NCBI GenBank assembly: GCA_016182875.1
Contig: JACPFQ010000001.1
Location: forward strand, 85,680 to 149,679
DNA length: 64,000 bases
From: Candidatus Doudnabacteria bacterium
Lineage (GTDB): Bacteria; Patescibacteriota; Doudnabacteria; UBA920; O2-02-FULL-48-8
Direction: 5' to 3'
Position 1 is the stretch's first letter. Every line of letters starts with the position of its first letter. Made by a program: the position numbers and the translations under genes. The notes under the pieces were generated by a model that saw only the letters and a list, made by a program, of their open reading frames with translations, searched no databases and was not told where the DNA came from. Shown here in pieces: positions 4,039-56,928 of the stretch.

Positions 4039-4776
4039 ATGCATATCTCGACTGTCATCGAACAACTGGGCTACCCGCCCAGCGAGGTCAGACTTTATCT
4101 GGCAGCTTTGGACATTGGCGAAAGCACAATTACTGATTTAGCCAACAAAGTCGGCATGCCCAGAACCAGTGTTCAAAGCGTGATTGAAGATATGCAAAAC
4201 AGGGGTTTGATGCACAGTTACATCAAACGCAAACGCAGGTACTGGGTGGCTGAAAATCCGGAAAAACTCATGATCTTACTCAAAGAACGCGAGGCCGCGC
4301 TCAAAAGCATCATGCCGGAACTGCAGGCCAAGCGCTTCACCCATGGCGGGCGGTTTGTGGTCCAGATTTACAATGGGCCAACTCAAATTAAACTAATCAT
4401 GGATGATATAATCGATACCAAACATCATATCTCCGCCATTGTTTCTTGGGACGAATGGAAAACGTTTTTGGGCTCCGATTTTGTCAAAGACTTCATCGAA
4501 CGCCGCGTTCAGCATTTTCTTAGGGTGCGTCTGTTGACGGCCCAAACCCCGTCGTCGGTTGAGCTTAAAAAACTGGACGAGCAAAGCTTGCGGCACACCA
4601 AATTCTTGCCTGACAACGCAGGTATCAACAATTCCATCTTTATCTACGGCAACAAGCTCGCCATTATTTCCATCAATAAGCGGCAACCCATGGGGATCGT
4701 CATTGACGATTTGGACATTGCGCACTCAGCTGAAATATTATTTGAAGCTTTATGGAACCAATGTTTGGAGCATTAA
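4039..4776 (+). CDS. TrmB-family transcriptional regulator (N-terminal wHTH)
   Basis: 'LGYPPSEVRLYLAALDIGESTITDLANKVGMPRTSVQSVIEDMQNRGLM' fits the TrmB HTH pattern. The ORF track gives a TTG start at 3973 overlapping the upstream ORF; the ATG at 4039 is preferred. Confidence 0.65.
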   Translation: MHISTVIEQLGYPPSEVRLYLAALDIGESTITDLANKVGMPRTSVQSVIEDMQNRGLMHSYIKRKRRYWVAENPEKLMILLKEREAALKSIMPELQAKRFTHGGRFVVQIYNGPTQIKLIMDDIIDTKHHISAIVSWDEWKTFLGSDFVKDFIERRVQHFLRVRLLTAQTPSSVELKKLDEQSLRHTKFLPDNAGINNSIFIYGNKLAIISINKRQPMGIVIDDLDIAHSAEILFEALWNQCLEH

Positions 4777-4810
4777 TGCTATAATTAAATCAAACTGGAA
4801 AGGACAAAAT

Positions 4811-4939
4811 ATGATGGGCTACGATGGTTGGGGAATGATGGGTTACGGAAGCGGGATTGGCTGGATAACTATCCTGCTGGTCTGGACAACACTGGGCTTT
4901 TGCATTGCCGCTCTTTGGAAGTACACCAGCAAGAAGTAA
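4811..4939 (+). CDS. Putative small Gly-rich membrane peptide (42 aa)
   Basis: 'MMGYDGWGMMGYGSGIGWITILLVWTTLGFCIAALW', one TM helix, SD GGAAAGGAC, followed by the terminator at 4957-4988. Confidence 0.35.
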   Translation: MMGYDGWGMMGYGSGIGWITILLVWTTLGFCIAALWKYTSKK

Positions 4940-4956
4940 CTTACTAGTTTTTTAAA

Positions 4957-4988
4957 AAATGACGACAATTTAGTCGTTGTTTTTTTGT
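4957..4988 (+). terminator. Rho-independent terminator; copy 2 of the hairpin repeat at 3666-3696
   Basis: GACGAC-aatttag-GTCGTT followed by TTTTTTTG. Confidence 0.55.
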
Positions 4989-5135
4989 TGTTTTTTCAAT
5001 GATTTATATGCAGTTTGATATATTTTCAGTGCTGGTCGTTGCAAATAAAAAACACGGTAGTAAAATTAGATTGACAAAGCCATCGAGTTAACAAAGGTCG
5101 TCGACAGGCAAGCAAGGTAACGAATTTCAATTAAT

Positions 5136-5759
5136 ATGAAAATAAGACATGTCACCACTCAAGAAGCCAGGCTTGTGGGACAGGAAATTGGCATCGACTG
5201 GAACGAAGTCGACTTGGAGCAATTCCGCCGGGGAATGGAAGTCGAATTTGAGCATGGGCTTATTGACGAACAGACGAATATAACCAACGATAACCCCCTG
5301 CTGACCGGCAAAATCGCCTTAGCTCACCTAAAAGAACTGCCGGATTATTACACTCGACTCGAAAAGATGGAACAAAATCAAGAAGAGTATCAGGAAGCCG
5401 GAAAACCGCATTATTACGGCAATACCATCCGGAAGCTTTTTCTCGTTTCAGCCTTGATAATGGTTATTTCGCTTCCGTTTGCCCAGACCTCACTCAACCT
5501 TCCAGTCTCAATATCAATCGTGGCAATCCTCATTTTGGCCGCTTTTGCGGGAATAATTAGTCCGAGGCTGTTCGCAACAGTTGAGATTGATACGGTCGTG
5601 GCGGCTTTAGGATTTCTGACGTTCGAGTATTTTGGCGTTAAATCATACTCCGAGCACAATGCCTTCTTCTTCGTCATAAACCAAATTCTCGCCGCATTGT
5701 TTTTGTTTGCGGCATACTTTGGAGTAAAAAACTGGCGAGGCATGCTCACCGCCAGATAG
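5136..5759 (+). CDS. Hypothetical membrane protein: soluble N-terminal domain plus about 4 TM helices
   Basis: The N-terminus 'GQEIGIDWNEVDLEQFRRGMEVEFEHG...KIALAHLKELPDYYTRLEKME' resembles a conserved DUF (possibly DUF5661; from memory only). The C-terminal half is hydrophobic. Confidence 0.55.
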   Translation: MKIRHVTTQEARLVGQEIGIDWNEVDLEQFRRGMEVEFEHGLIDEQTNITNDNPLLTGKIALAHLKELPDYYTRLEKMEQNQEEYQEAGKPHYYGNTIRKLFLVSALIMVISLPFAQTSLNLPVSISIVAILILAAFAGIISPRLFATVEIDTVVAALGFLTFEYFGVKSYSEHNAFFFVINQILAALFLFAAYFGVKNWRGMLTAR

Positions 5760-6212
5760 TTACGGTTGCAGTTTCATCACTTCGCCGATTTGGATGTGGT
5801 TTTTTTTAATCCAGCCGGCGTTAACTTCAAGCACGGAGTCGATTTCGACTGTTGGCTGGTAAAGCTTCAACTGATAATCTTCTCTGCCGGGTTCGGGCTC
5901 GAGGTTGGAGCTTATATCCACCACATGGCTATCTCGAATCCAAATGATATCTATACCGAATTTCATGTTTTTCATCCAAAAACCAGGCCTGCTCGGTTCA
6001 TCAAAGACAAACAACATGCCCTGATTTTCATTTAACTCCTCTCTGCCGGATAGACCGACCGCTCTTTCATCTTGCGTATCTGCCAGCTCGATGTTTAATT
6101 TTTTTCCGGCCAGCTCCACAGTCCCGTCATTGTAGCTTGAGCCGGTTTCCTGCAAATTGCATGCCGCGGCCGCAAAGGCAACTGAAAACAGAAGGATAAT
6201 AACTTTATTCAT
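5760..6212 (-). CDS. DUF192 (COG1430) lipoprotein
   Basis: Lipobox 'AAAACN'. 'GLSGREELNENQGMLFVFDEPSRPGFWMKNMKFGIDIIWI' is the DUF192 core. Confidence 0.7.
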   Translation of the reverse strand: MNKVIILLFSVAFAAAACNLQETGSSYNDGTVELAGKKLNIELADTQDERAVGLSGREELNENQGMLFVFDEPSRPGFWMKNMKFGIDIIWIRDSHVVDISSNLEPEPGREDYQLKLYQPTVEIDSVLEVNAGWIKKNHIQIGEVMKLQP

Positions 6213-24092: not shown

Positions 24093-24118
24093 TATTCTCC
24101 TATTCGCGCGAATTAGAG
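24093..24118. promoter_or_regulatory. Palindromic operator-like repeat ATTCTCCTATTCGCGCGAATTAGAGA, copy 1 (upstream of the GNAT gene, overlapping the 3' end of arsR-1)
   Basis: Perfect 12-bp palindrome ATTCGCGCGAAT. Three copies, at 24093, 24391 and 24734. Confidence 0.5.
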
Positions 24119-24373
24119 ATCGATGAGAAGTGATTTTACGAACGGGCGAAGCTTGGAATTGATACTGTAAAAAACATTTAAATTCCTCTGCTCTCGTTCC
24201 AATAGGTCAGCTCGCGCCAGAATGTTCAAGTGTTTAGAGGTGGCCTTAAAAGAAAGTCTTATTGCTCTGGCAACTTCCTGTACTGAAGCCTCTCTTTCTA
24301 TTTTAAGAAACTGTAATATGTACAGTCGTCGCCGATTAGCCAAGGCTTTAAGAATATTCTCTAATTCTTTCAT
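24113..24373 (-). CDS. ArsR/SmtB-family transcriptional regulator
   Basis: 'ANRRRLYILQFL...VQEVARAIRLSFKATSKHLNIL' is a wHTH. Confidence 0.8.
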   Translation of the reverse strand: MKELENILKALANRRRLYILQFLKIEREASVQEVARAIRLSFKATSKHLNILARADLLEREQRNLNVFYSINSKLRPFVKSLLIDL

Positions 24374-24426: not shown

Positions 24427-24729
24427 CTAAGGTTTTATCTCCAACAAAAGACTTACGGTATCGCCGGCTAAGATGTGTTCTTTTTTCCGTACCTCTGCTT
24501 TGAGCGGCAAAAGGTATGCTCCGGCTTTTTTATCGAAAAAAATAGACGTGTTCCAGATTGTTTGTTCGAGTCTAACAATAACTGGAAGCGAACTCCAACC
24601 TCTATGCGCAACAGCGAACAGTTGCTTGATTTTGCCCGACTGATTCTTGAGTAAAGTCACCATATGCCAGGCAGCTATCCCAGGATAAAGCCAGACCCTG
24701 GCCCGCATTTTATAAACCGTTCCTGTCAT
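24427..24729 (-). CDS. DUF1905-domain protein (paralog 1)
   Basis: 'WLYPGIAAWHMVTL...GWSSLPVIVRL...YLLPLKAEVRKKEHILAGDTVSL'. Confidence 0.6.
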   Translation of the reverse strand: MTGTVYKMRARVWLYPGIAAWHMVTLLKNQSGKIKQLFAVAHRGWSSLPVIVRLEQTIWNTSIFFDKKAGAYLLPLKAEVRKKEHILAGDTVSLLLEIKP

Positions 24730-24797: not shown

Positions 24798-25109
24798 TCA
24801 GGGTTTAATTTCTAAAACGAGACTGATCGTCTGACCGCCGGTGACTTTTTCTTTCTTGCGTACTTCTGCTTTCAGAGGCAGGACATATGCTGCGGATTTT
24901 TTGTCATAGAAAATTGATGTCTTCCAACTGGTCCGGCCGAGCCTGACGATAACGGGCAAAGAACTCCATCCTCGGTGCATATCCGAAAACAACTCCTTGA
25001 TCTTGTCTGACTGCTTGCGGGGCAGAGTCACCATATGCCACGCCGCCATTCCTGGCCAAATCCAAACCTTGGTTTTGATTTTATACCGACTCCTTGGTAA
25101 CATTCTCAT
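24798..25109 (-). CDS. DUF1905-domain protein (paralog 2)
   Basis: Same pattern as paralog 1, about 60% identical by eye. Confidence 0.6.
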   Translation of the reverse strand: MRMLPRSRYKIKTKVWIWPGMAAWHMVTLPRKQSDKIKELFSDMHRGWSSLPVIVRLGRTSWKTSIFYDKKSAAYVLPLKAEVRKKEKVTGGQTISLVLEIKP

Positions 25110-25132
25110 ATTCTTAAGAATATTGGAATATC
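25100..25132. promoter_or_regulatory. 31-bp repeat ATTCTCA(C/T)ATTCT(C/T)AAGAATATTGGAAT(G/A)TC, copy 1 (promoter region of DUF1905 paralog 2)
   Basis: Four copies, at 25100, 25440, 26907 and 27041. Nested palindromes CATTC..GAATG and AATATT. Confidence 0.5.
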
Positions 25133-25436
25133 AAAACTGCGAAAGGATCTTCTTGAATCTTTCACCATAAGGCGAAAGCTGGTGTTCAACCTTCCGCCCT
25201 TTGTAAGCCTTATTAACCAATCCCGCCTGTACCAGGCGGCGAGTATGCTCAGAGATAGTCTTAAAGTTGCAACGAAGCACATCCGCGATCTGTTCTAGAT
25301 TAATCCCCGGCTGCCTGGCTATCAGCAATAAAATATCGATCCGCCGATGGTTGGCTATCCCCTTAAAATGTCTTTCAAGTTGTTTCGCTGTTTTCATTTC
25401 TTTTTCGCTTCGGACTCTATAAAACCAGTCTATCAC
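25131..25436 (-). CDS. ArsR-family transcriptional regulator (paralog 2)
   Basis: 'HRRIDILLLIARQPGINLEQIADVLRCNFKTISEHTRRLVQAGLV'. Confidence 0.8.
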   Translation of the reverse strand: MIDWFYRVRSEKEMKTAKQLERHFKGIANHRRIDILLLIARQPGINLEQIADVLRCNFKTISEHTRRLVQAGLVNKAYKGRKVEHQLSPYGERFKKILSQF

Positions 25437-25498: not shown

Positions 25499-25831
25499 TT
25501 ATTTCTTAAGATAAGTCACGCTTCTGCCGGTTCGGCCGATTTGGCGCAATTTGCCTTGCTTTTCCAACTCATCCAGATATCGCTCGGCTGAGGTGTTGGA
25601 GACTCCAAGCATTTTTTCAACCATGTCATTGGTAATTTCATCATTCGCTCCAAAGCTAGCAAGAATCCGATCCAAATTTTTCCGGTGCTCTTCGGCCCGC
25701 ATCAGGTTCACTTCATTTTCGTCCCTGCCTACTTTGCCATTCTGGGGAAGAATCTGATTTTTGCCGAACCAAAATTTGGCAAAAATAACGCCAATGAGGA
25801 AGCCAATGGATATCATCAAAAAATCTCTCAT
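25499..25831 (-). CDS. Membrane-anchored protein with a C-terminal wHTH-like domain (110 aa)
   Basis: N-terminal TM 'ISIGFLIGVIFAKFWF', C-terminal 'ERYLDELEKQGKLRQIGRTGRSVTYL'. Truncated copies of its 5' end lie at 26332-26403 and 27045-27107. Confidence 0.5.
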   Translation of the reverse strand: MRDFLMISIGFLIGVIFAKFWFGKNQILPQNGKVGRDENEVNLMRAEEHRKNLDRILASFGANDEITNDMVEKMLGVSNTSAERYLDELEKQGKLRQIGRTGRSVTYLKK

Positions 25832-25844
25832 AAAATTTTAATTA

Positions 25845-26003: not shown

Positions 26004-26328
26004 GAACTAATTGATTTTGTTTCTCAAACAGGTCACCTTTGATATTGATTAAGGCAGGGTGGCAGAACCGCGCCGGAACTTCAAACGCTGTAAAAATAGC
26101 ATCTTTGATATTGTGCTCTAATTCCTCTATTGTGGCCCCACTGGTGATTATAGTACCTCGAGTGTAGTCAACAGAGCGGGCAACGAAGTATGATTGTCCG
26201 TCTTCTTCAACTTTCTCAAATCGAAAATTAATACCTCTACCCCTTAACTCAACAAGCATATCTTCTAGATTATCATGAGCTTGATTTTTTGTAGCAGTAT
26301 ATGATTGTATTCTTTGTAGTAATCTCAT
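25990..26328 (-). CDS. HicB/UPF0150-like antitoxin-fold protein
   Basis: 'FRFEKVEEDGQSYFVARSVDYTRGTIITSGATIEELEHNIKDAIFTAFE'. Confidence 0.5.
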   Translation of the reverse strand: MRLLQRIQSYTATKNQAHDNLEDMLVELRGRGINFRFEKVEEDGQSYFVARSVDYTRGTIITSGATIEELEHNIKDAIFTAFEVPARFCHPALINIKGDLFEKQNQLVHVTT

Positions 26329-26331
26329 GAT

Positions 26332-26403
26332 TTAATTATAGTCTAATCGTTTTAGGTGGTCAATAAACAAAAACCCAACAGCCACCATCAAAAAATCTCT
26401 CAT
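26332..26403 (-). pseudogene. Truncated duplicate of the 5' end of gene 25499-25831 (MRDFLMVAVGFLFIDHLKRLDYN*)
   Basis: ATGAGAGATTTTTTGATG plus a conserved upstream 'TTAATTAAA' are identical to the intact gene start. Confidence 0.5.
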
Positions 26404-26441
26404 AAATTATTTAATTAAATTCCAAGAATTCAGATTTTTAC

Positions 26442-26850
26442 CTACTGAACCATAATAGTATAGTTTAGAGTAATAACACCAGTTTTTAATTTATGAAATA
26501 CAAAAAGATACGCAGGTTTGTTCCGCTGATTTTTCTTAATCTTTAATTTCCTACTAACCTGGTCCAATAACTTTATTGGTAAGATAATAAATTCGTTGAT
26601 TCCCGTTTCACGGGTACGCGCTACTAGCACAGTAAAAACTCTTGACTCAACAAACTGAAAAGTGCCCAGTCTTATTCCAATGCTTTGTCTTGACCTGAAT
26701 AAGATAAGTCCTTGCTTCTTTTATTGCAGCAATATCCACACCATAATCAACCGGCAAAATATTTGCATTAAACCCCCGAAACAAAAGCTCGCTCATAACA
26801 GCAGCTTCTCCGCCTTTACCAGTAAAGATATTGATTGATCTCTTGTCCAT
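26442..26850 (-). other. Two small ORFs (62 and 67 aa); the 67-aa ORF has a PD-(D/E)xK-like signature (VDYGVDIAAIKEARTYLIQVK), possibly nuclease gene remnants
   Basis: ORFs at 26442-26630 and 26647-26850, in a region full of gene fragments. Confidence 0.3.
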
Positions 26851-26906
26851 AGATAAAGTCTACCACAAAAGAAAAAGCGTCTTTAGCCAACGTCAACCTT
26901 TATGAT

Positions 26907-26937
26907 ATTCTCACATTCTCAAGAATATTGGAATGTC
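26907..26937. promoter_or_regulatory. 31-bp repeat copy 3
   Basis: Identical core. Confidence 0.45.
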
Positions 26938-27040
26938 AATTCCGTTTTCGACACATTTGTACCAATATCCGAATTGCACCTGCCCAGCCGTCTGGCGGGG
27001 TAATTAAGCAAATCAAGGTTCGATCATGAAGAGTTCTAAT

Positions 27041-27071
27041 ATTCTCACATTCTCAAGAATGTCGGAATGTC
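27041..27071. promoter_or_regulatory. 31-bp repeat copy 4 (variant ..AAGAATGTCGGAATGTC)
   Basis: Truncates the gene-start fragment at 27045-27107. Confidence 0.45.
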
Positions 27072-27107
27072 TAAGAACCCGACAGCAACCAATAAAAAAT
27101 CTCTCAT
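27045..27107 (-). pseudogene. Second truncated duplicate of the 25499-25831 gene start (MRDFLLVAVGFLDIPTFLRM*)
   Basis: Same ATGAGAGATTTTTT start. The reading frame runs into the 31-bp repeat. Confidence 0.45.
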
Positions 27108-27877
27108 AGTGGAATGGATGTAAATGACTGTCGAGAATTTCTTTCAAATTGCCTTAGTTCTTCTTCGCGGATAATCGAATAACGAGAATCATTAAGCCTC
27201 TCCAACGGACAGAAAAATAACCGCGCGGGTTTTTTGGGACTGCCTCCCACTCCGATTACCACAAAAACAGACATCCCCTGTTTTCTACCATATTCTCTAT
27301 AATTTTCTCCCTTCCTTTTGTCCCAGTCTATGCCGCCCTTAAAAAAATATGAGCGATACTTACACTCAACCGCCAATATCTTTCCTGTCCCAATATGCCG
27401 GAAGGTAAAATCAGGATTAGAGTCGGATTCCACTGTCCGTTTAAGAATCTTTGAAAAATCCCTGGTCTTATCAACAACAACCCAGATATCTCTTGGAAAA
27501 AGAGAGGCTACATGGCTTTCGAACTTATAACCTTTTCCGAAGGTGTCATAATAAAGCCAAAGGAAAACCCCGAACACAATCGCGACTACTAAATCTAACA
27601 CCTGCCAAATCTTAGCGTTATGCAGATAAATTGGGACAACCGGATTGAAGAGTATAACTGCTCCAATAAATCCCAGGATCCAGTAAATTTTTCTGCTCCG
27701 GTAAGCAATAAAACTAAGAACAATACCAGCCAAGCTAACAAGCCATCGCAATATGCCAAAGTCGCCTCGATACAAACCCGCCGCTGCGACTAGTAGTGTG
27801 ATGATAACTATCCAGATTAAAATACGCGTTATAACTTCCGGATTCATAAATTTATACCTTTTGCTTAAGTTTACCAC
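27104..27877 (-). CDS. Membrane-anchored NERD (nuclease-related domain) protein
   Basis: 3-4 N-terminal TM helices, then C-terminal 'GKGYKFESHVASLF...DFTFRHIGTGKILAVECKYRS...SVFVVIG', the NERD/PD-(D/E)xK pattern. Confidence 0.6.
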   Translation of the reverse strand: MVNLSKRYKFMNPEVITRILIWIVIITLLVAAAGLYRGDFGILRWLVSLAGIVLSFIAYRSRKIYWILGFIGAVILFNPVVPIYLHNAKIWQVLDLVVAIVFGVFLWLYYDTFGKGYKFESHVASLFPRDIWVVVDKTRDFSKILKRTVESDSNPDFTFRHIGTGKILAVECKYRSYFFKGGIDWDKRKGENYREYGRKQGMSVFVVIGVGGSPKKPARLFFCPLERLNDSRYSIIREEELRQFERNSRQSFTSIPL

Positions 27878-28035
27878 AAAACAAAAACTATCGTCATTTG
27901 ACGTCGTCTAATAATAATTAGTATTCAGGTTATTGACTAATTTACTTCCGAATAATAAAATTAAGGTATGGTGGAGGCGCGAGAGACACCAAAACCACGA
28001 AAGGTCGAAAATAATTAATTTAAAGGACCAATAAA

Positions 28036-28257
28036 ATGGCCAATCAGCATATTGTTTACCGAGGGCACAATGAATGGGCGGTTAGACGCGAAAAAGCTAG
28101 CCGAGATACAATCGTTGTAGACAATCAGCAAGAAGCTTTTGATATTGCAAGAGATATTGCTGAAAATCAAGGTGGCGAAGTGTTTATTCACGGCAGAGAC
28201 GGTAAAATCCGTGAACGGAATACTTACAAGGATGACCCCTATCCGCCAAAGGGTTAA
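28036..28257 (+). CDS. DUF2188-domain protein
   Basis: '...GGEVFIHGRDGKIRERNTYKDDPYPPKG' (DUF2188 C-terminal signature). Confidence 0.65.
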   Translation: MANQHIVYRGHNEWAVRREKASRDTIVVDNQQEAFDIARDIAENQGGEVFIHGRDGKIRERNTYKDDPYPPKG

Positions 28258-28288
28258 TTAATAACCTGAAAATGAAAACAAAAAATTA

Positions 28289-28317
28289 AAAACCGCCAGA
28301 ACTACTGGCGGTTTTTG
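28289..28317. terminator. Bidirectional terminator between the convergent DUF2188 genes
   Basis: AAAACCGCCAG-aacta-CTGGCGGTTTTT. Confidence 0.65.
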
Positions 28318-28323
28318 CTTTAT

Positions 28324-28620
28324 CTAATTTTTAGGTGGATATGGATCAGAAGAATAAAACCTGGTTTCAATAAGGCCATTTCTATTGTGAATAAAGATCT
28401 CTCCCCCATTTTGGCCAGTGTCTTCCCTAGCCTTTGATAAGGCTTCATCACGAGTACTATATCTTTTTTCTTCCCTAGCTCCAATTCTTTTTACTTTCCA
28501 TTCTCCATCTTTTGGAAAAATATGAACATTTCTCTGCCCACGCTTAATAGCCTCAGTATATGATCTTATCTGGGGATTATTCTTATTATTTCTTTTCAAT
28601 GGTATTTCTTTAGGTGCCAT
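28324..28620 (-). CDS. DUF2188-domain protein (paralog)
   Basis: '...NGGEIFIHNRNGLIETRFYSSDPYPPKN'. Confidence 0.65.
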   Translation of the reverse strand: MAPKEIPLKRNNKNNPQIRSYTEAIKRGQRNVHIFPKDGEWKVKRIGAREEKRYSTRDEALSKAREDTGQNGGEIFIHNRNGLIETRFYSSDPYPPKN

Positions 28621-28624
28621 ATGT

Positions 28625-29221
28625 CTATTCTGAAACCAATTTGATTATATCATCTTTAGTATATTGATTTTCTCTTAAATAGGCAAGCAAATCACCTCTA
28701 GTTTCAAATTTTAACTCGGTAAAACTCAAATCTTCCCCTAAATAAGCGTTCTTGATAAGTTTGATCTCTACGTGAGGATAGTTTTCTGCTATCCAAAGCA
28801 AGGTCTTCCTTGCTGAGGAATGTTTTTCATAAAAGTATCTGTCACTAAATTTTCTGTCCCGGTTAAGAAATGCAACGAAGGCTTGTTTGAAATCTTGGGG
28901 CCAAACGGCATGAATTTCTATCTTTTTCTTAGATTTACTAATTCTTCCTATTTTAATTCCTGCGCCTTTTTCGGTTGGAAGTATACCGTCTAGGACGATT
29001 AAATCTTGCTTATCTAAATATTCTGAAAAATATTCGGTTTTTCCAGATGCAGGTCCACCAGACAATAAAACGACCTTTTCAAATTTAGATGTTTTAATTG
29101 TCTCGTAAAGCTTTGCGTCGGCTAACTTAGCAGATTCACTATGAAATTCCTCAGATCGTTCTGGCGAGTATCCTGGTAAATCCTTTTTAATATCATCAGC
29201 AGAAATCAATATCGAAGTCAT
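28625..29221 (-). CDS. P-loop kinase, zeta-toxin/AAA_33-like
   Basis: Walker A 'LSGGPASGKTEYF', about 200 aa, nucleotide-kinase-like. The family assignment is tentative. Confidence 0.45.
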   Translation of the reverse strand: MTSILISADDIKKDLPGYSPERSEEFHSESAKLADAKLYETIKTSKFEKVVLLSGGPASGKTEYFSEYLDKQDLIVLDGILPTEKGAGIKIGRISKSKKKIEIHAVWPQDFKQAFVAFLNRDRKFSDRYFYEKHSSARKTLLWIAENYPHVEIKLIKNAYLGEDLSFTELKFETRGDLLAYLRENQYTKDDIIKLVSE

Positions 29222-29326
29222 TTATATAAATTTATTCATTTTCTTCAATTTCAAATCCTAGTTTGTTTTGCAGTTCTTTCGGTTGTAATAATAAGGTAAA
29301 ATAACCTAAAACTCCTTCAATCCGTA

Positions 29327-29644
29327 TTAATAAAATTCTCTATCAACATAAATTTCTGAAGAATAAATCTTACGTTCTGGGCCGCTCATTACTAATCGTG
29401 GCTTAATTTCTGATTGAGGTATTGTAAAGTCATGTAAATCTTCTCCAGATGCTACAGCTAGCTCTTTTATGCAATCATTAAACTCATTAGCATATTTCCC
29501 TTGTACATGAGATTTAGGCAAATTATTTTTTAACGCTGTCAATTTAGATAACGATCTGGCGAGTTGCTTATCCATAATTGAAGGATTCTTATATTTTAGA
29601 AAAACCAAAATCTTTTCCGACAGGTTTAAGTTCTTGATTATCAA
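29327..29644 (-). CDS. Hypothetical 105-aa protein, translationally coupled to the upstream EVE-nuclease gene
   Basis: ATGA overlap with the 29641-30693 gene. No recognisable domain. Confidence 0.4.
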   Translation of the reverse strand: MIIKNLNLSEKILVFLKYKNPSIMDKQLARSLSKLTALKNNLPKSHVQGKYANEFNDCIKELAVASGEDLHDFTIPQSEIKPRLVMSGPERKIYSSEIYVDREFY

Positions 29645-30693
29645 CAGTGTTCTAAATAATTAATAAAATCAATATATTTTTTATCGGTTGGTTCCCGTGA
29701 TGGGACTAAAATCCTGTATTGGTCCTCAAAAGTTATATTCTTTTCTTTTTTGAATTTATTGATCTCAAAATAATCATATTCATATAGTTGCACTATTCCT
29801 TTTCGTGCTTGGACTTTAAAATTTCTGTTTTCTGTACTTTTTACTTCAAAGAGAAATGAACGCTTACCGTCATGCGCAAACAAATCAACATACTCATTAG
29901 AAAGCGTAGCATATCCCTTCTTTCTAAATATGCTTATCAGTTGTTCAAGGACAGAATGATGAGATGCTTCTGCTCGAGCCAGAATATCATTATCTCGCTC
30001 GACTATAGAATAAGGTTTAATTATTAATCGCTTCTTGATTGATTCTAAAAATCTCAAGGAAGCTGCGTGTCTTAGAGTTTCAGTTGCATTATGAACTTCA
30101 ACTAAATCTGATGCCTTCTGTTCAATCGCGGGACCACGAGTTGAGTGTCCGGTATATAAATGTAATGGCCTATTTTGAAATAAAATTTGTTGAGCAACTT
30201 CGGGCCGTACCGTGGAAAAACTACCCATTTGTGGGAAACCCTTAATTTCTGAAATTGGGATTCGATTTCCAACCAGTTGACTAATCAGTGGAACCGTAGC
30301 AACATCATTGGCTGGTGTGGGTGATTCCCAATTTGCAGGATTAGGTAATTCGCCGAATAAATATATTTCAGTTAACGGAACTAATAATGGCCAACGGTTT
30401 ACATTGTTTTTTATTTCATAATGCCATAAATAGTTATTTTTTATCGAAAAATCAAAACCAACTACTCCAATTCCGATTATGCCGGATTTAGCTACGCCCG
30501 GGAAAGCTGAAGTATCTCCTGATGAACTATGAATAAAAAATATATCGCCTGTTTGCAATTTTTCCCAATCTTTTCTATTTTTGTCTTTAGCTTCAAGTCC
30601 CCAAGTAAAATATTTAATAGCGGTCAACCAGTGCTCAGGCGGACCAGTAAACTTAAAAAACTGTTTTTGATTTAGAGCCGAAGAAAGATCCAT
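29641..30693 (-). CDS. EVE (PUA-like) domain fused to a PD-(D/E)xK nuclease (DUF3883-like); putative modification-dependent restriction endonuclease
   Basis: N-terminus 'KQFFKFTGPPEHWLTAIKYFTWGLE...LQTGDIFFIHSSSG...GIIGIGVV' is EVE-like. C-terminus 'VDLFAHDGKRSFLFEVKSTENRNFKVQARKGIVQLYEY' carries D...E-x-K. Confidence 0.55.
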   Translation of the reverse strand: MDLSSALNQKQFFKFTGPPEHWLTAIKYFTWGLEAKDKNRKDWEKLQTGDIFFIHSSSGDTSAFPGVAKSGIIGIGVVGFDFSIKNNYLWHYEIKNNVNRWPLLVPLTEIYLFGELPNPANWESPTPANDVATVPLISQLVGNRIPISEIKGFPQMGSFSTVRPEVAQQILFQNRPLHLYTGHSTRGPAIEQKASDLVEVHNATETLRHAASLRFLESIKKRLIIKPYSIVERDNDILARAEASHHSVLEQLISIFRKKGYATLSNEYVDLFAHDGKRSFLFEVKSTENRNFKVQARKGIVQLYEYDYFEINKFKKEKNITFEDQYRILVPSREPTDKKYIDFINYLEHC

Positions 30694-31040
30694 TATAATT
30701 TATTGTACTTAGTATGTTTCCCTTTGGCTTTGTCTACTGGGTATTTCTTCTCGTTCTGTTCCATTTTTTTATGAAAAGCTTCAATTATATCAACACCAAT
30801 ATCATTACTGATAAGCAATACCCAATAAAGGACGTCGGACAATTCTTCAGCTACTTCTTCTTTATGATCTTTCACATACGCTTCCATTTCTTCTTTGTTT
30901 TTCCATTGAAAATGCTCAGCCACTTCCGCAGCTTCTAACATCAAGGACAAGGCTAAGTCTTTAGGATTATGAAACTGCTTCCACTCTCTATCATCTCTGT
31001 ATTTAATTATTCTGTCAGTTAAATCTTTTATATCCGACAT
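30693..31040 (-). CDS. MazG-like nucleoside-triphosphate pyrophosphohydrolase (all-alpha dUTPase/dCTPase-like)
   Basis: 'EWKQFHNPKDLALSLMLEAAEVAEHFQWK...ELSDVLYWVLLISNDIGVDI'. Its stop overlaps the start of the EVE gene. Confidence 0.7.
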   Translation of the reverse strand: MSDIKDLTDRIIKYRDDREWKQFHNPKDLALSLMLEAAEVAEHFQWKNKEEMEAYVKDHKEEVAEELSDVLYWVLLISNDIGVDIIEAFHKKMEQNEKKYPVDKAKGKHTKYNKL

Positions 31041-31221
31041 AAAAAATTATCCAAATTACTTGGCTTAATAATGCCACGAATTGCTTGGAAAATCAATCAA
31101 CATCTCAGACGGGTGTGGGGTGTTAGATTAAGGTTATAGGTTTTAGGTGATAGGTTATAGAAATCAAAAACGGGCCTTGAAGCCGCTTTAAATATATTAG
31201 CTTTCGCTTGGGTCAAATTTG

Positions 31222-31250
31222 TTGACGAGTTTATACTTAAAACCTAAAAT
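31222..31250 (+). promoter_or_regulatory. Near-consensus sigma70 promoter (TTGACG, 17-nt spacer, TAAAAT)
   Basis: -35 at 31222-31227, 17-nt spacer, -10 at 31245-31250. Confidence 0.45.
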
Positions 31251-31256
31251 CTTTGT

Positions 31257-31394
31257 ACCGTCAGATTTTGGGGAAAGCAGGACGAAAACCCTGCCAGAGA
31301 CACCTGGTCAAAACCTCCACTTGGGTTCGGAGGGGCTTCGAGGGCACCAGGCACCTGTTGAGGTGAGGACTCCTCCAATTCTGACGGCTTTTTC
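31257..31394 (+). ncRNA. Candidate small structured RNA (~135 nt) closed by a long-range stem ACCGUCAGA...UCUGACGGC plus UUUUUC
   Basis: Transcript predicted from the promoter above. Ends pair over 9-10 bp, and the internal hairpins GCAGG..CCUGC, ACCUGG..CCAGGU and CCUCC..GGAGG are followed by a T-run. Class not identified. Confidence 0.35.
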
Positions 31395-31442
31395 TTATGA
31401 AAAAAATCAGCTGGCAAGATTTGCTCCTGCCAGCCTTAACTC

Positions 31443-31692
31443 TCAGACCCGCCGGAAGTCTCGGCCTTCGGACGGTTGGTACAACCCAAGCTTGCGGTTG
31501 CTGCGGTTGGGGAAGACCGGGATGGTGCCTGCGATGAACCTGCCGAGGTCTGTAACCTCGCGGTCATAGCGTTTGGCCCGCACCCAATCTTCTCTCTTGA
31601 CGGCCCGGCCACGAAGTTTCTCGTAGCGCTTCTTGAGGAACTCGGCTGCCGCCAGTTCATTCATGTACTTGATTTGCTCCAACCCGTGCATA
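31443..31692 (-). CDS. Hypothetical 82-aa ORF downstream of the DUF62 gene
   Basis: Starts at MHGLEQ and overlaps the 3' end of the DUF62 gene by about 35 nt. Sits in the GC-rich island. Weak support. Confidence 0.3.
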
Positions 31693-56070: not shown

Positions 56071-56928
56071 CTAATAATTAGTTATAATTACTTCCTTGAC
56101 TTTACCTCTGCCTTCGCTCTTACAGTTTATCGCTCGGTTTGCATCAACTTCTTTAATTAACTTAGCATATTTGGCATAAAGTCGAAATATCAAAGGCGTG
56201 TGGGAATTTGATACCATAAAATAAACCCCTTTTTCGCTCAACCTGTCGCATAGATCTCTTAGATCAACTTGCATTTTCAAATCGAAATCGTCTTTAAAAT
56301 ATTTTGTGAAAGATGTTCTGTTCAAAGGTATGTAGGGGGGATCAAAATAAATGAAGTCTCCTTTTCTGGCATCCTTTTCGACATCTAAGAAAGACTGGCA
56401 CTTAATTACAATATTGCGTAGCGCCTCATTGGAAGCTCTTAAATTATGTTCATCTATAATATTTGGATTTTGATAGTTGCCGTAAGGAACATTAAAATAA
56501 CCCTTAGAATTGACTCGATAGAGTCCATTGTAGCAAGTTTTGTTTAAATAAATAAATCTTGCAGCTTTTTGCACATTATTCCATTTATTATAGTCCAAAT
56601 TTCTATCAGCATTTCGAATTTTATAAAAATCTTGCTCGGTATTCTTTAGTTTCTTTAGTTCAATAATTAGATCATCAACCTGATCTTTAATAATTTGATA
56701 TACGTTCATCAACTCTGGGTTTATATCAGAGATTGTGCTGAGCTTTGGCTGCAATCTGAAAAACAAAGCCCCGCCCCCAACAAAGGGCTCAAAGTACCTA
56801 TTAAACCATTTGGGAGCATATCTTACCAATTCATCTAAAAGCTGGCGTTTGCCGCCTGCCCACTTCACAAAAGGCTGTACTTTTATTTTAGCGTCTATTT
56901 TCAATGCGAGTTGTTTAATATTATACAC
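56071..56928 (-). CDS. Dam-family N6-adenine DNA methyltransferase
   Basis: 'VKWAGGKRQLL', 'EPFVGGGALFF', and the catalytic 'DPPY'. Confidence 0.85.
   Translation of the reverse strand: MYNIKQLALKIDAKIKVQPFVKWAGGKRQLLDELVRYAPKWFNRYFEPFVGGGALFFRLQPKLSTISDINPELMNVYQIIKDQVDDLIIELKKLKNTEQDFYKIRNADRNLDYNKWNNVQKAARFIYLNKTCYNGLYRVNSKGYFNVPYGNYQNPNIIDEHNLRASNEALRNIVIKCQSFLDVEKDARKGDFIYFDPPYIPLNRTSFTKYFKDDFDLKMQVDLRDLCDRLSEKGVYFMVSNSHTPLIFRLYAKYAKLIKEVDANRAINCKSEGRGKVKEVIITNY

Follow-up and report, generated by a model that had tools for sequence, protein, structure and literature searches.

We describe a two-gene module on the minus strand of a 64,000-nucleotide (nt) stretch of DNA from a Candidatus Doudnabacteria genome (contig JACPFQ010000001.1, positions 85,680 to 149,679; the whole stretch is called the window hereafter). 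In this module, the gene of a DCTPP1-like deoxynucleoside triphosphate (dNTP) pyrophosphatase is followed by a gene for an EVE-like reader domain fused to a PD-(D/E)xK nuclease. On balance, the fusion protein is probably a modification-dependent (type IV-like) restriction endonuclease, encoded as the second gene of a mobile operon whose pyrophosphatase would sanitize modified dCTP. The two genes are strictly linked, are transferred together and lie in defense-type neighborhoods, from which we infer a mobile defense module centered on bacteria of the candidate phyla radiation (CPR), with the pyrophosphatase controlling modified dCTP. The nuclease copy in the window itself is probably damaged.

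The fusion nuclease and its protein family

The nuclease gene (29641..30693, minus strand) is an ATG-initiated open reading frame (ORF) of 350 amino acids (aa), which is 3'-truncated relative to a family of ~368 aa. Its coordinates, and the strings W..G, GDIFFIHSS, GIIGIGVV and VDLFAHDGKRSFLFEVKS on which a preliminary description of this DNA had based an EVE reader and a nuclease, were all recovered in the translation. An identical protein, annotated as hypothetical, is on record from a Candidatus Doudnabacteria metagenome-assembled genome. Searches with the single sequence were almost blank, as Pfam returned only a sub-threshold Hjc match (E 0.009) over the E-x-K strand, NCBIfam only a weak sub-threshold Hjc match, and phmmer against the PDB none; the assignment therefore required profiles and structure prediction. 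A word-indexed search identified at least 355 relatives, the best 120 of which share 65-86% identity and are ~368 aa long; these stem from metagenomes of CPR/Patescibacteria, and none has a precomputed Pfam domain. T48-G-D50, F52, F53, H55, G71, G74, G76, D270, E283 and K285 were invariant in alignments of 18 and 72 family members, so the motifs represent a conserved signature and not a chance match. AlphaFold 2 modeled the window protein with a per-residue confidence score (pLDDT) of 83 and a predicted template modeling score (pTM) of 0.81; the model of a full-length homolog had an overall pLDDT of 90.1.

An EVE-type reader joined to a PD-(D/E)xK nuclease

The N-terminal domain (aa 10-165; 30199..30666, minus strand) forms a PUA-like pseudo-barrel in the predicted model, with EVE structures as its nearest neighbors. 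Using the full-length model, Foldseek placed MJECL36 (2p5d) and PH1033 (1wmm) first (E 4e-6 to 3e-5), and a profile of divergent N-domain relatives found the same two proteins in the PDB (E 4.5e-6 and 2.7e-5, respectively), with the E-x-W...WG...GD motifs aligned. Both are archaeal UPF0310 proteins, which we take to be members of the EVE family. They are standalone proteins of ~145 aa, of unknown function and without a nuclease, and they lack the FH(S/T) and W90xxE93 motifs specific to the family studied here. No match to the Pfam EVE model (PF01878) was obtained for the window nuclease at E<=1, and the N-domain relative P0160 reached it at E 0.0087 only (below threshold). Alignment of the N-domain profile by hhalign to the canonical-EVE protein P0209 gave a probability of 0.2, a value that says little because the target was a lone sequence. 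The EVE-type reader of the preliminary description is accordingly retained on the predicted barrel and the sequence-level match to MJECL36 and PH1033, with the Pfam EVE model itself unmatched. Conserved positions in the domain include G17, E20, W22, T24, W31, W43, H55, G74, W90 and E93; across divergent reader relatives, T16, E20, W22, W31, W43, H55, W90 and E93 are conserved at the level of sequence, as candidate lining of a pocket for a flipped modified base like that of the EVE-HNH enzyme VcaM4I.

The nuclease domain (aa 200-350; 29644..30096, minus strand) has the alpha-beta-beta-beta-alpha-beta core of PD-(D/E)xK enzymes in the predicted structure. Its catalytic core, DLFAHDGKRSFLFEVK (29839..29886, minus strand), holds D270 and E283-V-K285, which do not vary among 72 family members or among divergent relatives of the domain. 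The helix following the E-x-K strand contains QLYEY (29776..29790, minus strand), a Q302-x3-Y306 motif whose Q302 and Y306 are invariant in the same sets. The closest folds are XisH-family and Hjc-type nucleases (2inb, 2okf, 1gef), with the D...E-x-K strand aligned: Foldseek with the full-length model returned the XisH family at E 1.5e-3 to 3e-3, followed by YTH, VcaM4I, Hjc, FokI and BspD6I, and a C-domain profile matched Hjc (E 0.007) across the D...E-x-K strands. XisH- and Hjc-type proteins have no reader, and the Q-x3-Y helix motif and a terminal hairpin are specific to the domain family of the window protein. The PD-(D/E)xK assignment of the preliminary description is thus borne out by the predicted core fold and the invariant D...E-x-K residues. 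Two of its details need correction, as the domain spans ~150-170 aa (aa ~200-368 in full-length homologs) and not ~120 aa, and the label DUF3883-type does not apply: no PF13020 match was found at E<=1, while the same library detects NOV_C in another partner of the pyrophosphatase (L090, E 1.2e-15). PF13020 is now called NOV_C and was formerly named DUF3883.

Each half also occurs without the other. A profile search run exhaustively over 1.84 billion representatives yielded 531 matches. The N-domain alone precedes the AAA_5 GTPase module of McrB-type proteins; of five such proteins examined, two also contain MrcB_N, one of these with an additional DpnI_C helix-turn-helix (HTH), and in one McrB-type protein the N-domain overlaps a weak Pfam EVE match. 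The C-domain alone is fused to a canonical Pfam EVE domain in P0209 (E 3.9e-9), and elsewhere to MTaX1, to the AlwI N-terminal region and to DUF7226. Judging by these architectures, both halves are modules shuffled among restriction-type proteins, which favors DNA as the probable target.

Linkage to a DCTPP1-like pyrophosphatase

The first gene of the module (30693..31040, minus strand) encodes a 115-aa DCTPP1-like dNTP pyrophosphatase of the MazG-like, all-alpha type. It matched Pfam MazG-like PF12643 above the cutoff (E 4.9e-16), and phmmer against the PDB returned the archaeal 4qgp (E 4.8e-21) as well as mouse RS21-C6 and human DCTPP1 (E 2.7e-18). Both of its metal-binding motifs (E36xxE39 and E66xxD69) vary little or not at all. 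Homology to these enzymes is clear (E 1e-18 to 1e-21, with the ExxE...ExxD motifs conserved), whereas the form found here is a prokaryotic 115-aa protein inside defense-type operons, with its substrate predicted by homology. The stop and start codons of the pyrophosphatase and nuclease genes overlap in a TAATG sequence (30691..30695, minus strand), through which the two genes are probably translationally coupled.

This arrangement is strict. In all 34 loci retrieved (linkage data from four long-contig contexts and 27 species-representative genomes), the pyrophosphatase gene precedes the nuclease gene in the same orientation, and in nearly all homologous loci the two overlap or lie only a few nt apart. 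Among 37 independent loci, six of them from a metagenome scan, the pyrophosphatase was full-length in every case. The nuclease was intact in 31 of these, incomplete at a contig end in one (L049) and disrupted in the remaining five (the window, L027, L032, L034 and L092, the last being frameshifted and also reaching a contig end). Disruption of ~5/37 nucleases next to an always intact MazG fits a nuclease that is costly to carry.

Both genes also share a foreign composition. The guanine-cytosine (GC) content of pyrophosphatase and nuclease is 0.34 and 0.35 against flanks of 0.47 in the window, and 0.41 and 0.40 against flanks of 0.62 in an Aminicenantes genome. Pairwise identities of the two genes are correlated (Mantel r 0.43, reached by 2/2000 permutations). 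Given the shared foreign GC and these correlated identities, the pair is transferred as one unit. Hosts are mainly CPR lineages, and also Omnitrophica, Elusimicrobia, Firestonebacteria, Aminicenantes and one Nanoarchaeia archaeon; the expectation in the preliminary description that such an enzyme would be uncommon in a CPR-like genome is therefore not upheld for this family. Its distribution is patchy across phyla, with 27 matches in 185,579 species genomes in a pattern-limited scan. A phage origin was considered and set aside, since a scan limited in the same way found no relative among 2.9 million viral contigs. Insertion into a hotspot beside a housekeeping MazG is also less likely for the EVE module, because its MazG has foreign GC and accompanies the nuclease into non-CPR hosts; such a hotspot is possible in some CPR loci, where MazG has housekeeping neighbors (L081, L120).

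A full-length RadC (UPF0758_N helix-hairpin-helix domain and RadC-like JAB domain) accompanies some modules at a variable position: between pyrophosphatase and nuclease in three loci (L020, L024, L031), upstream of MazG in four (L021, L022, L025, L029), and also in L008. It was rejected as a core component, as it occurs in only 8 module loci and in 20/79 pyrophosphatase loci and is missing from the window.

Frameshift in the window copy

Full-length homologs end in ...INSLDLGVATVxDxxLKPVGxDFGFSKI, whereas the window protein ends in ...INYLEHC followed by a stop. DNA alignment with four homologous loci revealed an 11-nt gap in the window, with the junction between nt 29649 and 29648, and the remnant of the conserved tail, TVDNQELKPVGKDFGFSKI followed by a stop, persists out of frame directly downstream (29589..29648, minus strand). 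The frameshift falls 18-21 codons ahead of the normal stop and removes ~6% of the protein. Independent assemblies of at least four sequencing runs yielded contigs encoding the same 350-aa product, which shows that the deletion is genuine in this population rather than an assembly error. The out-of-frame tail shows no decay, which indicates a recent event.

In the model of a full-length homolog, the tail forms a confident β-hairpin (E347-352 and E355-358, pLDDT 91-97), which is retained even where the nuclease domain is only distantly related. The model of the truncated window protein loses confidence at its end, with pLDDT falling to 48-63 over the final 30 residues. Every catalytic residue is retained despite the deletion. 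Loss of the terminal β-hairpin may have left the window copy weakened or inactive, as far as sequence comparison and modeling can tell. The deletion also bears on the annotation downstream, where a listed 105-aa ORF with a TTG start (29327..29644) is partly spurious as a consequence, and the true downstream gene is probably an 82-aa ORF (29327..29575).

Defense-type neighborhoods and other pyrophosphatase partners

Defense-island context and horizontal mobility were both found for the module. An SRA-HNH gene is tightly linked to the EVE module in five independent loci, encoding proteins of ~232 aa (L005/L006, 7116-7826; L007, 7110-7808; L013, 5148-5843; L020, 2128-2829) or a 75-aa fragment (L011, 3697-3924; L012, 2165-2392). 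SRA-HNH is a classical type IV architecture dependent on 5-methylcytosine (5mC) or 5-hydroxymethylcytosine (5hmC), and such loci hold two different readers of modified bases side by side. DpnI follows the module in one locus, and further neighbors include PDC-S41, PIN, Fic and toxin-antitoxin-like genes. PADLOC-DB v2.0 gave no match for the window nuclease, the full-length homolog P0002 or the pyrophosphatase. No methyltransferase gene adjoins the module, either in the window or among the genes tabulated for the four long-contig loci. The only methylases picked up by a motif scan were a C5 methylase in L012, at a distance of 2.5 kb, and one of Dam type in the window, at 25 kb. Fusion of reader and nuclease, an operon without a methyltransferase and the defense context are together consistent with the type IV-like role that the preliminary description had proposed. 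Reverse-transcriptase (RVT_1) genes, which could belong to group II introns or be retron-like, occur on two unrelated contigs at 0.8-2.8 kb downstream of the module (L004, 9896-11212; L007, 7892-9391).

The pyrophosphatase family is far larger than the nuclease family (5,543 against 355 matches), and the slot behind it was surveyed in 80 metagenomic loci anchored on the pyrophosphatase, 79 of them non-redundant and 73 informative downstream. The gene in this slot usually starts 0-15 nt after the pyrophosphatase gene. It encodes an SLFN-g3/DUF2075-type helicase protein in 48/73 loci (four times behind an intervening RadC), an EVE-nuclease in 6/73, an X-HNH endonuclease in 2/73, an X-NOV_C protein in 1/73 and RadC alone in 3/73; an unrelated, housekeeping or unclassified gene follows in about 13/73. 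Across the 79 pyrophosphatase loci, RadC was found somewhere in 20 and SRA-HNH in seven. The helicase partners (L039, L041, L042, L019 and the 48/73 informative loci among L043-L122) are 520-670 aa long and are Nhi/AbiO-like according to PADLOC, with L019 a full-length PDC-S41 (E 6e-290); domain search detected neither an EVE-like nor a nuclease domain in them. The NOV_C partner is PDC-S36/PD-T4-1-like in PADLOC, and the X-HNH partners gave only weak matches (E ~1e-3) that were not counted. We tentatively raise the possibility, which we would not yet favor, that a modified-dCTP pyrophosphatase forms the constant core of unrecognized CPR-centered two-gene defense systems with an interchangeable second gene (EVE-PD-(D/E)xK, Nhi/PDC-S41-like helicase, X-HNH or X-NOV_C), often with RadC and SRA-HNH alongside.

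Proposed mechanism and alternative explanations

CPR bacteria depend on nucleotide salvage: like DPANN archaea, they lack nucleotide synthesis of their own and import DNA fragments of other organisms, some of them modified. Under our proposal, drawn by analogy with VcaM4I, the EVE-clade domain would flip a modified base into a pocket lined with tryptophans, the base probably being a modified cytosine, and its capture would license the PD-(D/E)xK domain (D270, E283, K285, Q302xxxY306) to cut DNA. Modified cytosine is put forward as the signal because the partner enzyme is homologous to DCTPP1. The pyrophosphatase would hydrolyze modified dCTP, for example 5-methyl- or 5-hydroxymethyl-dCTP, keeping salvaged modified nucleotides out of host DNA and so sparing the host from attack by its own nuclease; it might also starve phages that replicate with modified dCTP. 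The same pyrophosphatase clade heads operons with other defense effectors in this slot, the EVE-nuclease being one of several interchangeable partners.

Several observations qualify this proposal. L012 encodes a C5-cytosine methylase (4714-5937; PF00145, E 1e-63) 2.5 kb from an intact EVE-nuclease, which suggests that the nuclease does not attack the 5mC pattern of this host; SRA-HNH is reduced to its 75-aa remnant in the same locus, perhaps because 5mC methylation and the SRA-HNH enzyme are in conflict there. The partner found most often behind the pyrophosphatase is a helicase without a detectable reader domain. The window encodes a Dam-like D12-class N6-adenine DNA methyltransferase 25 kb from the module (56071..56928, minus strand; PF02086, E 1e-63), and its host DNA is probably N6-methyladenine (m6A)-methylated.

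The constancy of the pyrophosphatase beside a variable downstream partner, and the prevalence of Nhi/AbiO/PDC-S41-like helicases with no reader domain detected, could also be read as nucleotide-depletion defense, in which the DCTPP1-like enzyme would be the main effector, acting on dCTP or a phage-specific dNTP, and the EVE-nuclease a sensor or second effector with no need for modification dependence. We consider this unlikely, as the 115-aa enzyme has no regulatory domain and constitutive depletion of dCTP would hurt the host, its nearest characterized relatives are house-cleaning enzymes favoring 5-modified dCTP (PMC7162842), and the EVE fold together with the SRA-HNH and DpnI neighbors points to modified bases. 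A role in housekeeping sanitation, with the pyrophosphatase barring modified cytosine and the EVE-nuclease nicking it out for repair in salvage-dependent CPR cells, would fit the very high sequence conservation, the enrichment in CPR and the sanitizing role of DCTPP1 in eukaryotes (PMC7162842, PMC4491611). Such a role is improbable for a family that is rare and patchy (the 27 matches given above), has GC foreign to its host, is frequently pseudogenized and lies beside bona fide restriction, defense and toxin-antitoxin-like genes.

Likewise, we give very little credence to an RNA-targeting nuclease, in which a YTH-like reader of a modified RNA base (m6A or a tRNA modification) would direct RNA cleavage: in structure and in sequence the reader is best matched by EVE/UPF0310 proteins, the partner has a deoxynucleotide-specific enzyme as its relative, and neighbors and domain relatives (SRA-HNH, DpnI, MrcB_N, AlwI, MTaX1) act on DNA modifications. 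A decaying pseudogene in the window, leaving only the pyrophosphatase functional, would be compatible with a modification-dependent nuclease in the family as a whole, and we lean modestly away from it. The deletion was confirmed in four assemblies, four further loci have disrupted nucleases, and the lost hairpin, conserved in distant domain relatives and confidently predicted in the full-length model, contrasts with the low pLDDT (48-63) of the truncated C-terminus; conversely, the catalytic residues and the alpha-beta-beta-beta-alpha-beta core are all kept, the undecayed out-of-frame tail marks a recent event, and the loss is limited to ~6% of the protein.

Relation to known systems

An earlier survey (Bell, Wolf and Koonin 2020, PMC7641849) already lists EVE-PD(D/E)XK and EVE-HNH proteins among putative type IV restriction enzymes. 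With the same core architecture and predicted function, the fusion is a divergent member of the EVE-PD(D/E)XK class; its family is missed by the Pfam EVE model and may thus lie outside that census. A characterized analogue is VcaM4I (PDB 6yex), which restricts 5mC/5hmC DNA by base flipping and consists of an EVE domain (residues 1-147), a linker helix and a nuclease; the flipped 5mC/5hmC is held between W82 and Y130 and recognized by T11 and E15, and without the EVE domain and linker the enzyme becomes a toxic non-specific nuclease (PMC7897488). The invariant T16-x3-E20 of the present family has the same spacing as T11/E15 and is accompanied by several invariant tryptophans, which is no more than a lead. 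Unlike VcaM4I, the window protein carries a PD-(D/E)xK rather than an HNH nuclease, its reader is nearer to archaeal UPF0310 proteins, and it has an obligate pyrophosphatase partner, which is unreported for VcaM4I. In contrast to McrBC-type systems with variable N-terminal readers, the reader is fused straight to the nuclease, with no GTPase motor.

The pyrophosphatase partner appears to be new. The EVE census (PMC7641849) makes no mention of MazG, pyrophosphatase or dCTP, and neither MazG nor pyrophosphatase is mentioned in the CoCoNuT census or in a 2025 review of restriction biology. Full-text literature searches found nothing pairing MazG with EVE-domain or modification-dependent restriction or with DUF2075, a search for dCTP pyrophosphatase with type IV restriction gave a single match, on phage base biosynthesis, and no paper was found describing the pyrophosphatase-helicase pairing. 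Both the obligate DCTPP1-like partner and a pyrophosphatase-led cassette with interchangeable effectors therefore appear undescribed in the searchable literature.

Type IV enzymes are regarded as stand-alone, without a protective partner, since the host lacks the targeted modification. The linked and co-transferred pyrophosphatase suggests that this assumption fails for nucleotide scavengers. If our proposal is correct, the pairing would show how such cells protect themselves and tie dNTP-pool sanitation to immunity. Under the more tentative reading of a constant pyrophosphatase core with an interchangeable second gene, cleaning of the dNTP pool would be a new "immunity" function in place of the methyltransferase of classical restriction-modification: host DNA would stay free of modified nucleotides, whether salvaged or phage-made, and modification-dependent effectors could be carried safely by organisms living on scavenged nucleotides. 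It also makes testable whether incorporated salvaged modified nucleotides are a real hazard. In addition, the compact and unusually well-conserved reader-nuclease could be screened for new modification specificities for use in epigenomic mapping.

Other features of the window

The module lies in a low-GC island (~26200..31400) with a GC content of 0.29-0.42, compared with 0.53-0.59 to its right and ~0.45 to its left; the right-hand boundary, at ~31.2-31.4 kb, is sharp. Neither an integrase nor convincing flanking direct repeats were found beside the island, and no tRNA, transfer-messenger RNA or Rfam family, sought as integration landmarks, was detected anywhere in the window. Upstream of the module lies a ~370-nt spacer (31041..31435, minus strand) that contains the GC boundary; promoter-like matches in it did not exceed shuffled expectation, and no promoter was assigned. 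A terminator-like hairpin of the upstream high-GC gene is located at 31409-31435 (minus strand), and the region 31041..31660 contains only implausible ORFs and no Rfam family at the gathering threshold.

Just downstream of the module, a 198-aa P-loop protein (28625..29221, minus strand) shows a weak zeta-toxin-like match (E 0.004) at Walker A. It is followed by two divergent DUF2188 genes (28036..28257, plus strand; 28324..28620, minus strand), the latter matching the PADLOC candidate defense family PDC-S16 (E 9e-16). Within the same low-GC island, a 257-aa protein (27104..27877, minus strand) combines an N-terminal DUF6804 membrane domain with a C-terminal ...PDFTFRH...ILAVECKYR... sequence that resembles another D...E-x-K motif of the PD-(D/E)xK type. 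A 36-nt sequence is present in three copies with 78-100% identity (25797-25832, 26369-26404 and 27073-27108), each encoding an N-terminus MRDFLM... on the minus strand, which suggests paralogous genes for small membrane proteins; a different repeat, of 38 nt, has two copies, at 26900 and 27034. Farther left, two tandem paralogous genes of ~100 aa (24427..24729 and 24798..25109, minus strand) each lie near a small HTH-type gene (24113..24373 and 25131..25436) and are unrelated to the module.

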